Below are positions 9,792 to 16,147 of a stretch of 64,000 bases of DNA, in pieces. The stretch spans positions 4,030,001-4,094,000 of the forward strand of contig JAYWIR010000004.1 of NCBI GenBank assembly GCA_036172245.1. The letters run 5' to 3'. A model generated the notes under the pieces. It had not been told where the DNA came from. It worked only from the letters and a program-made list of their open reading frames with translations, and made no database searches. This DNA is from Raillietiella orientalis. Lineage: Eukaryota. A program made the translations under genes and the position numbers. Within the stretch, counting starts at the first letter, position 1; every line of letters begins with the position of its first letter.

Positions 9792-10148
9792 TGAGAGCTT
9801 AAACCAAAGAAGTTTTCTTTGATCATGCGTGTTCCTAATATTGGATTATACCTACTTATGAACTTGCGAATAATGTGCAAAAATCCTGAAGGCACTCATC
9901 TACTTGTTCATGTTTAGCTATCCTAAATAATGAATTACTACAGATGTAATAATGGTATCTAATGTGTTTATTCATGCAGAAAATGCGCACATTAATCATT
10001 TTACAGTCCTGTATGATGACAGAATGTTTGATCACTAATTAATAATTATCGAACAAGTGTTACTGTAAAAGTTTAAGAGGGTCATAATGAATAATGCACA
10101 TCGATTTATAATTGCTCGTTTTTTGACTGAAGCTTTTTCCTAGGAAAA
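9792..10148 (+). repeat. Left arm of long inverted repeat (partner 13346-13650)
   Basis: 9818-10061 is the reverse complement of 13381-13624 with 2 mismatches. Weaker similarity extends on both sides, with a ~50-bp indel at 10062-10111. Confidence 0.93.
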
Positions 10149-11895: not shown

Positions 11896-11998
11896 TTTAC
11901 AAAGCTTGACACTTGGATCTTAGCCAAAAGGCTCCATAGAGCAGGAGCTCGGGCTCCTGCTCTATGAGAGTATTTCTTTCGCCTTTTACAAAGCTTGA
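11896..11998 (-). pseudogene. 75-bp insertion (perfect hairpin plus 5' U2 snRNA fragment) between 14-bp direct repeats
   Basis: tttacaaagcttga at 11896-11909 and 11985-11998. Minus strand 11932-11909 reads GCCTTTTGGCTAAGATCCAAGTGT (U2: GCCTTTTGGCTAAGATCAAGTGT). 14-bp perfect stem with 4-nt loop at 11935-11966. Confidence 0.75.
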
Positions 11999-12165
11999 AG
12001 GTGGATAGGGCATTCAGATTCTAAATGAAAAATATATTTTGGCAGCTTCAAGTCACTATTAAGTACGTAGAATATGTTAACAGATTTAATCAACTTTAGT
12101 TTGATTCTTGCGTATCCAGTGTCAAATGTACTGTGATCTAATTGAATTTCTAGAATCCTTTAGAT

Positions 12166-12904
12166 CAGGGATCGCAAACTGGCGGCCCGAGGTCCGGACA
12201 CGGCCCGCGAGATATTGATGATTTTTTTTTTCTTCAAAAAATCGATGTTTCTAGAATCTTGAGGTGGATAAAAAAAAAATCATACTTTTATTTGTTTTGT
12301 GTCAGCTTTAATCAAAGGTGAAACTTACTACTATACTTCTTTGTATTATTTTTCTATTATAAAATGTTGCCAACACTAAATGGAAGTTAGATGTCACGCC
12401 AACATTTTAAGCCACATGATACGATGTCAATAGATTACGCGTTGCCATTGTAATGCCATAATATGTTAATAATAAGTTACCTCAATAATTTATTTATTTA
12501 TTTTTGCCCATAACAGTGTCCACAATACTTCATAGTGCACCACGAAATGAAAAAGCAGATACTGACATGTTAGTACGGAGGAAAAGATGCCAGGTGTCGG
12601 GATCAAATTCAAATTTAAAAAAGGACTCGCAGATTAACATATTTATTTTAGCCAGTCAAAATTATTTATTTTAATGATTTTCTCAAAGCAGGAATAAAAT
12701 GTAATTGAACTAATGTTTTTTAAACTTGTCATAGTTTAAAAATTTAATTGTCGGTGTAACTGTTTACGTAAGCCGTAAAGTCTGGCAATAAAATGGTCTT
12801 TGTAAGAGCATTTCTTTTTCAGTTTACGCTTTGGTCCACAGAATAATATTGAATACGGCCCGCGTCTGATTAAATTTTTGCTGCGTTTGAGTTTGCGATC
12901 CCTG
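12166..12904. mobile_element. Non-autonomous hAT element (MITE, Charlie/Buster-like), 739 bp
   Basis: Perfect 15-bp TIRs cagggatcgcaaact / agtttgcgatccctg, 8-bp TSD ctttagat (12158-12165 and 12905-12912), subterminal cggccc motifs and an AT-rich non-coding interior. Confidence 0.92.
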
Positions 12905-13345
12905 CTTTAGATTCTCACTGTTTCAGTACTTTACATAGAAACAGATAAGACTATAAAAAGACTTCGATACTAGTGGTGAAAAGCCTACAGCTGAGGATCA
13001 AATAAATCACATATAAAAGCCATGCTTCAAGGCTGCCAGCACTTTATTAAAATATTTGTATTTTACTTTCCGTTAGGGCGTGATATTTTTATTAAAAAAA
13101 AGAAATCCTGTAAAACATCTGTTTGAAACTGAAGACAAACATTTTGCTCCAAAAGATGTGTATAAGATCGAGCTTCATAGGTCATCCAAAGACCAAGGAT
13201 CTCATTAAGGTCCTTGGTCACGCATCTTTGGATCATCACGCATGCTTCTCTGGAAGTACTCAAACACACCTAAGAGAGGAATCTTCTTAAAGAGAACGTG
13301 CTGAGCTTACCTTATTAAAATGAAATCTCAATACAAATCACCAAC

Positions 13346-13650
13346 TTTTCCTGGGAGGAAATTTCAGTCAAGAAACGAGCAACACTTGTTCGATAATTAT
13401 TAATTAGTGATCAAACATTCTGTCATCATACAGGACTGTAAAATGATTAATGTGCGCATTTTCTGCATGAATAAACACATTAGATACCATTATTACATCT
13501 GTAGTAATTCATTATTTAGGATAGCTAAACATGAACAAGTAGATGAGTGCCTTCAGGATTTTTGCACATTATTCGCAAGTTCATAAGTAGGTATAATTCA
13601 ATATTAGGAACACGAATGATCAAACAAAACTTTTTTCGTCTTATCTCTCA
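13346..13650 (-). repeat. Right arm of long inverted repeat (partner 9792-10148)
   Basis: Reverse complement of the left arm; ~215 bp of uninterrupted identity in the core. Confidence 0.93.
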
Positions 13651-14329: not shown

Positions 14330-16120
14330 GAAAGTGAAGCTGCTGAAGCTTTATCAGAGAACATTCAGCTAGGCGGAGATGAGGATGCTTCTCCACCTGA
14401 GTTCCATTCTCTGTCATCTGAAGAGGTGTCCTACTGGATGAAGAAGGCCGAAAATTCAAGCCCAAGAATCGATGGAATTAGTTACGCCGGTTGCAAAATG
14501 GTTGATCCTAAAGGAGTACCTTTAACGCCAATTTTTAATACATTAACTAAATTTGGCGAAGATACCAGAAGCATGGAAATGTACCAAAACAATATTGCTT
14601 CCGAAGACAGCATTGCTCCATGAACATACGAGATTGGAGGCCTATATCATAGGAAACAGTATATATAGGCTCTTCGCAAAATGCCTCACTGTGAGATTTA
14701 AAGAGTGGATTGTGGAGCAAAGGATCATTTGTCCCCAACAAAAGGGCTTTTCACCCTTTGACGGCGTATTGGAGCAGAGCTTTATCCTCCAGACACGTCT
14801 TGATCATGCCAGAAAGAGGTCTGAGGACCTGGGATTGGTGTTTCTTGACATATCCAATGCATTTGGTACAATCCCGTACCATCTTTTGCTTAATGCAATG
14901 AAGGAAGCTGGGACTGGTAATGAATTTATGAAGACTGTTGAAGATATTTACAAGGACGCCTACACATTTATTCAGCTTGACATGTCAATTACTCGACCTT
15001 TTTTGCTCAATAGGGGTATCGAGCAGGAGGGTCCATTGATCTCTCTTCTGTTCATAATGGCCATGGAATCTGTCCTTCGGACGTTCAGGGAAAGCTACGA
15101 AGAAGAATTCTTCCTTGCCTACTCTGATGACCTTGTCATCCTGGCAGAAACGGAGGAAGAACTGGATAATAGGATGACTCATTTGATTGATCTATTGAGA
15201 ACTGGACTTGCCATCAACCCATCCAAATGGGGGTCTTTCTACCTACATGGGGAAGCACCGAAGGGCATAAAGAACTTGACTCTGAAGACTGGAGGTATGC
15301 TCATTCCGAGCTTTGTCTGAAGCGTACAAGTATCTGGGTAAGGCCTTCGGTCTGGAGATTTTCCATAAGCATCCATCCAAAACGGACATAGTGTTATCCA
15401 CCAGGCTTCGAAGATCCTATTAAGTGGCACCTTGGCAAAAGTTGAATGCACTTAAGGCCTTTTATTTTCCCAGTCTCAGACTGGGAACGCATCCAAAGGG
15501 TGACTGAACTTATCTTGATAAAGAGATTCGACGGATGACGAAAGAGATGATTCATCTGTTCTCTAGAGCGGCCAATGAAGCTGATACGGTTATAGAAAGA
15601 AGGCTGTTTAGGCATGATGAAGCTGTCCAATGAAGCTGATACCTTTATTTCGGATTCTTGTTTTAAGCTCCATACTTCGTCGGATGTTACAGTTAAACAA
15701 CTTGCTATGGATTCTCTCCAGGAGGTGGTTTGGAAGAAAATTCTTTCTTCACCAACAGACGCGGATCTTGCAAAATATCTTTCAGCGGAAACTGATGGAA
15801 AATTTCAGCGAGATGGTGGTGATGTCAGAAGTCTATGGACGGTGGGAAGACAGGCCTCAAGAAGGCTGTCTGCATCTTGGGAATGGGTTGATGGTGACCC
15901 TAAGATCTGCATCCCGGAAGTGGTTATTGATTCTACCCACAGGAAGAAGGTTGCTTCGACAATTCGGAGTCTCCAGCGGGAATCAGCATGGCTTTCCCTA
16001 ATTAACAAGCACCCTGACCAAGGGAACGCTATGAGGTGCGTTGGTCTCCATGAAGTCTCCAGTTTCTTTCTGACTAGTGGCGACTATTTGCATTTCGCAG
16101 ATTTTCGTTTTATCCACGCG
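14330..16120 (+). mobile_element. Decayed RLE-type non-LTR retrotransposon (NeSL/Utopia-like), copy 1; RT region, truncated before the zinc knuckle and endonuclease
   Basis: RT motifs ENSSPRIDGISY, QKGF, FLDISNAFGTIP, GIEQEGPLISLLF, LAYSDDL, GLAINPSK; downstream KHPDQG...SGDYLHFADFRFIHA resembles the NeSL/Utopia motif. Several frameshifts and stops. Confidence 0.88.
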
Positions 16121-16147
16121 ATGTTAGCTAAAAGGCCCAGAGCATAT
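16120..16147 (-). other. Possible degenerate U2 snRNA 5'-end fragment at the break point of retroelement copy 1
   Basis: Minus strand ATATGCTCTGGGCCTTTTAGCTAACATC versus metazoan U2 ATCGCTTCTCGGCCTTTTGGCTAAGATC (21/28 ungapped). Confidence 0.4.

Follow-up and report, generated by a model that had tools for sequence, protein, structure and literature searches.

Tailless retropseudogenes are reportedly the subject of work by Schmitz from 2004. In the accessible text of Noll et al, 2015 (PMC5322556), tailless copies are described from therians, a lizard and, in a few cases, maize, and the words "chimer" and "invert" are absent from the main text. For L1, Kojima (2010; PMC2912911) gives duplication lengths that peak at 14–16 bp. 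Doucet et al (2015; PMC4476161) describe 30 repeat-associated snRNA copies from human, 7 of them twin-primed chimeras, in which the U5 pieces end at nt 36–48, within the same loop as the U5 piece reported below, and the partner is L1 or SVA. Duplications accompany 70–100% of the human copies, and the accessible part of that paper lists "template choice" models as alternatives. According to a 2026 survey of LINE-1 chimeras (PMC13174262 and its preprint), twin priming leaves the pieces in opposite orientations.

In insertions made in cells with the R2 protein (PRINT; PMC11371274), 5′ junctions with snap-back have been described, often after full-length cDNA synthesis. Utopia (PMC4640811), a protein-coding element (RT/RLE), resides in U2 genes and has the U2 3′ part behind it; in arthropods, its families insert with no duplication. 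The SINEU elements of crocodilians (PMC4494074) are multi-copy, snRNA-derived SINEs, and a template switch from U2 to U1 has been proposed for SINEU-2. Here, we describe a 75-bp insert of Raillietiella orientalis that is best read, from its sequence, as a retro-insertion in which two RNAs, U2 and U5, form a head-to-head chimera.

Architecture of the insert

The insert is flanked by exact 14-bp direct repeats within a 64,000-nucleotide stretch (the window) that is animal DNA, as indicated by Tsg and FAM110 domains. The bases bordering the two repeat copies differ from each other, and none of 900 random control positions gave a repeat of at least 14 bp, with at least 10 bp being reached in 0.3%. 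We infer, rather than observe, that the repeat is a target-site duplication, because no empty site was found in the assembly, where both the flank and the surrounding 3.9-kb inverted-repeat element are single-copy. Neither end of the duplication fits the L1 endonuclease consensus, and the target is not A-rich. The 75 bp contain no retroelement sequence, LINE-1 or SVA segment or poly(A), and all of them except a 2-nt linker could be assigned to U2 or U5 (Table 1). The two pieces lie head to head, in opposite orientation, with one 14-bp duplication around both and no second duplication between them. The original prediction had correctly located the insert, its exact repeats, the perfect 14-bp stem with its 4-nt loop, the 2-nt linker and the U2 piece, and its proposal of a retro-insertion with target-site duplication is supported. 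It was also right in calling the insert a chimera, which we find to consist of U2 plus U5. The template switch that it offered as an origin does not fit the layout, since after a simple switch both pieces point the same way (PMC13174262, legend to Fig. 7), whereas here they face apart.

Table 1. Features of the insert and its flanking repeats, in window coordinates.
Feature	Position	Strand	Remarks
Left copy of the putative 14-bp target-site duplication	11896..11909	.	Last base is also U2 nt 35 (minus strand), a 1-nt priming match
U2 snRNA nt 12–34	11910..11932	-	3′- and 5′-truncated; one mismatch at nt 29
2-nt junction between fold-back arm and U2	11933..11934	-	Untemplated bases, or a 1-nt slip extending the arm to U5 nt 24–25; ambiguous
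Added inverted copy of U5 nt 13–22 (10 nt)	11935..11944	-	Joins U5 nt 1–4 to give the first 14-nt arm of the hairpin
U5 snRNA (variant here named U5B) nt 1–45	11945..11989	+	3′-truncated in loop I; 44/45 identical to the full-length U5 at L047
Right copy of the putative 14-bp target-site duplication	11985..11998	.	Shares its first 5 bases with U5 loop I, a microhomology for priming

The U2 piece matches nt 12–35 of this genome's own U2 at 23 of 24 positions, one of which is shared with the left repeat. Its identification as a 3′-truncated U2 fragment ending at the branch-site recognition sequence was correct, although the single mismatch had been overlooked. Its end at nt 34 is the commonest U2 3′ end point in the genome. 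A search of the window with a U2 17-mer gave 2 matches, against 0.18 expected. The second match (16120–16136, minus strand, two mismatches) is ambiguous and possibly represents a decayed U2 5′ fragment.

The perfect stem (11935–11948 and 11953–11966, with a 4-nt loop between the arms) had been taken as replacing or interrupting the normal 5′ end of U2. Instead, the stem plus the 18 bases before it are U5 on the other strand. Nucleotides 1–12 of U5B (numbered according to the Rfam alignment) make up a native mini-hairpin of 4 bp and 4 nt; the inversion turns there, and the 14-bp stem is this mini-hairpin lengthened by an inverted copy of nt 13–22. At the other end, U5 nt 41–45 are common to the U5 piece and the right repeat. 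Since Rfam searches of the region and of the insert named neither U2 nor U5 and returned only sub-threshold miRNA-like hairpins, each of them far below its cut-off, the U5 call is based on identity to full-length copies that pass the Rfam U5 cut-off, such as the one at locus L047 (77.5 bits against a cut-off of 40). A genome search with the insert gave 22 matches. At other places there were 15, all restricted to the hairpin half (query 6–56); none of these extended to the second hairpin arm or to U2, and 7 coincided with loci scored as U5 beyond the Rfam cut-off. We discarded the idea of a hammerhead or a SINE tail for the hairpin, as its genomic matches overlap U5. Among the U5 loci L043–L072, we observed at least two strongly diverged U5 types, with differing stem sequences and a constant loop I, and dispersed retrocopies of both.

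The junction between U5 hairpin and U2 is single-copy: of three hits returned by a pattern search, the two besides the insert itself contain nothing of U5 outside the 9-base seed. According to the original prediction, a single copy would mark a one-off chimeric pseudogene, and this is what the assembly contains. This result also bears on two origins that it had considered, a variant U2 bearing an additional stem at its 5′ end and a tiny U2-derived mobile family. Stem I of U2 stays paired in the insert, which folds stably (z = −5.5; none of 200 shuffled sequences was equally stable), and snRNA-derived SINEs are described from crocodilians (PMC4494074). Yet we find either origin scarcely credible, given that the hairpin is opposite-strand U5, that the junction occurs once, that the U2 piece lacks nt 1–11 and all that follows nt 35, the Sm site included, and that 41 of the 90 U2 copies we read elsewhere start at the ordinary nt 1. 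None of the attributes of a functional variant U2 gene (full length, an Sm site, a score above the Rfam cut-off) was present, and there was no U2 Rfam hit at the insert. Almost certainly, this well-preserved insert is a non-functional fossil, a dead copy of two snRNAs.

The surrounding sequence is AT-rich, with no reading frame of at least 120 aa across the insert, and is part of a 3.9-kb stretch that is single-copy and has long inverted ends. Two 273-bp inverted arms (9792–10064 and 13378–13650), 97% complementary and 3.3 kb apart, enclose the insert together with a 37-bp inner pair. No other copies of these arms were found in the genome, and they are possibly the relic of a foldback-type transposon or a local inverted duplication. 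An element of ~740 bp at 12161–12909, with short terminal inverted repeats, an 8-bp direct repeat and two other copies at 77–83%, is presumably hAT-like. Further downstream, a reverse transcriptase fragment (14547–15317, plus strand; Pfam RVT_1, E 2e-19) is probably a decayed LINE.

Fragments and paired inserts elsewhere in the genome

A 17-base motif from the 5′ part of U2, with up to two mismatches, had 685 matches in the genome and 22 in the control, which leaves about 660 copies over background in 210 Mb. We read 90 of these copies, drawn from the first 100 exact matches listed; one duplicate (L094, of L093) was left out of the tally of 3′ ends. In the remaining 89, the ends cluster at nt 34–37, with the mode at nt 34 (23 copies). 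Exact duplications of at least 10 bp flanked 13 of the 90 copies, compared with 0.3% of controls, and none of the 13 begins with three or more A, unlike L1 targets. The 5′ motifs of U1 and U6 had 80 and 129 matches (controls, 1 and 0), and the U5 loop motif had 87 (control, 39). Other U5 copies that end in loop I also carry duplications, of 15 bp (L211), 13 bp (L224) and 11 bp (L225). Inspection by eye of the 100 bases upstream of 47 of the 87 U5 loop matches revealed no other fold-back arm and no U2 partner. As a separate observation, among the 20 best U2 Rfam loci that we read (L023–L042), 19 are U2 3′ parts, starting from about nt 39 behind AT-rich sequence; their downstream flank is mostly common and they resemble the 3′ ends of LINEs that target U2. 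None of these 20 was an intact U2 gene.

Although the U5/U2 junction is unique, the head-to-head class recurs in this genome. We found three U1/U2 head-to-head inserts, with duplications of 13 bp (L081/L189), 12 bp with one mismatch (L098/L190) and 11 bp (L261), two of which join at the two bases that begin both RNAs. Three of the five hits of the U1/U2 pattern search were dropped as chance. Exact two-motif patterns miss decayed copies, and L261 was missed by the first pattern and found on reading copies. A tandem U1-then-U2 pattern had no match in the genome. Inverted U2/U2 pairs number at least eight, 7 being clear among 10 pattern hits (L193 was set aside as chance, L196 and L197 as ambiguous) and one more being L301. 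With exact two-motif patterns, no U6/U2 or 5S/U2 head-to-head pair was detected. The single U4/U2 hit (two in the control), with 8 bases between the motifs, was taken as chance, and no convincing U4 piece was seen beside the 90 U2 copies read. Pairs in the same orientation also exist: L100/L307 (U2, repeat, U6), L150 (U2 then 5S rRNA) and L329 (U6 then U5).

Some of these inserts showed additional peculiarities. In L189, L190 and L261, the U1 pieces differ past nt 20 from both of the full-length U1 types that we read. Such sequence after nt 20 also occurs in many short U1 copies, which suggests that the genome may hold further U1 variants. L192 and L199, which are independent U2/U2 inverted pairs, carry an identical change of one base in their inverted copies.

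The frequency of the fragments bears on whether the insert might have arisen by two separate insertions at one hot spot, with a U5 retrocopy first and one of U2 landing at its edge afterwards. Copies of the U2 5′ part are abundant enough for such an encounter to be conceivable, and in L100/L307 the U2 and U6 pieces are each bracketed by a repeat. Here, however, a single duplication surrounds both pieces, and the hairpin arm would be left unexplained. Independent insertions should give only about 0.005 U1/U2 neighbours, a figure that applies equally to chance adjacency of the pieces here, and all 4 U1/U2 and U5/U2 neighbours found point away from each other. We therefore regard two successive insertions as very improbable.

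Proposed twin priming and its alternatives

We favor twin priming on U5 and U2 at one break, combined with snap-back of the U5 cDNA, and give this reading a probability of about 0.6. The order of events that follows is reconstructed from the identities, orientations and junction matches of the pieces and from their recurrence. A staggered double-strand cut, some 8–14 bp wide, would have exposed two 3′ ends. The minus-strand end would have paired over the 5 bases seen at the right junction with loop I of U5, and a reverse transcriptase would have copied U5 to nt 1. This cDNA could then have folded back, its last 4 bases annealing to the complementary stretch 4 nt away, and have been extended by about 10 bases with itself as template; the perfect hairpin that we observe would result. 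The plus-strand end, with a match of 1 base only, would have annealed to U2 where the branch-site recognition sequence is single-stranded, and synthesis would have run from nt 34 to nt 12. Joining of the two cDNA ends through 0–2 bases and fill-in would leave one duplication around both pieces. Both outer ends of the insert, at U2 nt 34 and in U5 loop I, are at usual truncation points. A protein of a non-LTR retrotransposon, working in trans, probably served as the enzyme. We do not assign the cutting nuclease to the L1 type, because the cut sites have no L1 motif (0/13 duplications A-rich).

Inverted inserts elsewhere provide precedents for individual steps. In L191 and L198, the inverted U2 copy reaches nt 41 and 44, respectively, and the forward copy ends at nt 34 and 37; the inverted copy outruns the forward one, and the second cDNA was therefore made from RNA. 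In L195 (C20:1732603), a palindrome is centered on a U2 fragment and its arms reach about 87 nt into the genomic flank, and hence snap-back copying does occur in this genome. The inversions turn where the first bases of the RNA have an internal complement, of 3 nt in U2 (L191, L195 and L198) and 4 nt in the U5B of the insert. For U6, turning at a 4–5 nt complement was seen in 3 of 30 copies read (L318, L320 and L325 are U6 5′ copies with an inverted segment that turns at the first four bases), and for U1, which has an internal match of 2 nt, in none of 70. This rule is compatible both with snap-back and with annealing of two cDNAs.

Twin priming might also have acted with the hairpin arm made from RNA. 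The U2-primed cDNA would then have jumped onto a second U5 RNA at about nt 22–25, copied it to nt 9 and annealed through the 4-base complement. This route yields exactly the same sequence, which alone would not separate it from snap-back, and it has parallels in the RNA-templated inverted copies of L191 and L198 and in the jumps between small RNAs that L150 and L329 suggest. It demands three templates and an internal jump, however, and the turn is located exactly at the 3′-terminal mini-hairpin of a full-length cDNA; snap-back itself is seen at L195. We consider the second U5 unlikely. The predicted fold of the cDNA of U5 nt 1–45 has its 3′ end paired up to the last base.

Snap-back and junctions of 0–2 nt are typical of theta-type end joining. 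A host polymerase copying free cDNA or genomic snRNA fragments, instead of RNA at the break, might thus produce junctions like those observed, and the lack of an L1 motif at the cut sites would suit this process as well. Against it, both pieces stop at landmarks of the RNAs (U5 nt 1, loop I and the branch-site region of U2) with no donor flank, and a duplication of 14 bp is what target-primed insertion typically leaves (L1 peak at 14–16 bp; PMC2912911). These features make theta-type repair highly unlikely in our view.

Twin priming with snap-back could be one instance of a broader process, in which a reverse transcriptase free of its own RNA routinely closes staggered germ-line breaks by priming both ends on exposed snRNA loops, with head-to-head U5/U2 and U1/U2 inserts as its signature and U2 and U5 maybe taken from one assembled spliceosome. 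This generalization seems distinctly doubtful to us. Capture from one spliceosome is conceivable because the primed loops are those that bind the pre-mRNA. The partner counts (three U1/U2, one U5/U2 and no U6/U2) are too thin to show spliceosome-specific capture, and U2 is simply the commonest fragment. Head-to-head joining is not the sole route, because same-orientation pairs also occur.

Comparison with known systems

The value of the insert lies in what it records of mechanism, namely of the way in which reverse transcriptases exploit the two ends of a break. Inserts composed of two bystander RNAs demonstrate that each end of a target can be primed while no retroelement RNA is left in the product, and they bear on the "template choice" models in the accessible text of Doucet et al (PMC4476161). 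The set also supplies natural examples of a second, RNA-templated cDNA (L191 and L198), of snap-back (L195) and of turning points predictable from the first bases of an RNA. With its many U2 5′ copies and its non-L1 cut sites, this genome is suited to identifying the enzyme.

Utopia and SINEU (PMC4640811; PMC4494074) share with the insert, as far as their accessible text describes, the involvement of the 5′ part of U2. The original prediction mentioned Utopia as an element that targets U2 genes, but nothing in the insert is derived from that element; unlike Utopia, the locus lacks the 3′ part of U2, and coding sequence is absent both from the insert and from its borders. SINEU consists of many dispersed copies of one composite, whereas the junction described here is single-copy. 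The insert resembles R2 PRINT junctions (PMC11371274) in that a cDNA 3′ end primes synthesis on cDNA or nearby DNA before the junction forms. PRINT products are engineered and located in rDNA, in contrast to this natural germ-line fossil of a host snRNA, which is joined to a second cDNA.

With tailless retropseudogenes, as described in the accessible parts of PMC5322556 and PMC2912911, the insert has in common 3′ truncation in single-stranded regions, the lack of an A-tail, a duplication and microhomology priming. Those copies derive from a single RNA at L1-type, A-rich targets, whereas this one, from an animal outside the groups listed for them, is an inverted chimera of two RNAs at a target that is not A-rich. 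In addition, tailless copies have a nearly complete 5′ part of the RNA adjoining the duplication, while here U2 is without nt 1–11 and nt 1 of U5 is internal.

The closest match is with the human twin-primed snRNA/LINE-1 chimeras. In both, U5 is cut in loop I (nt 45 here, nt 36–48 there), the pieces are in opposite orientation within one duplication, and priming relies on short complementarity at the second nick (here, 5 bases for U5 and 1 base for U2). Exact duplications of at least 10 bp flank only 13 of the 90 U2 copies read in this genome, compared with duplications in 70–100% of human copies in the accessible text of PMC4476161. One cDNA of the insert carries a fold-back arm, unlike the human chimeras. 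A LINE is retained as first-primed partner in the published twin-primed snRNA chimeras, but not in the insert. The literature searched contained no LINE-free head-to-head snRNA pair, and this snRNA/snRNA form thus appears to be unreported, although supplementary tables may list cases. The insert works like a twin-primed snRNA/L1 chimera, and it stands outside that class on two counts: its partners are two snRNAs, where the human chimeras have L1 or SVA, and its cut is not L1-like, where theirs begin with a first nick by the L1 endonuclease.
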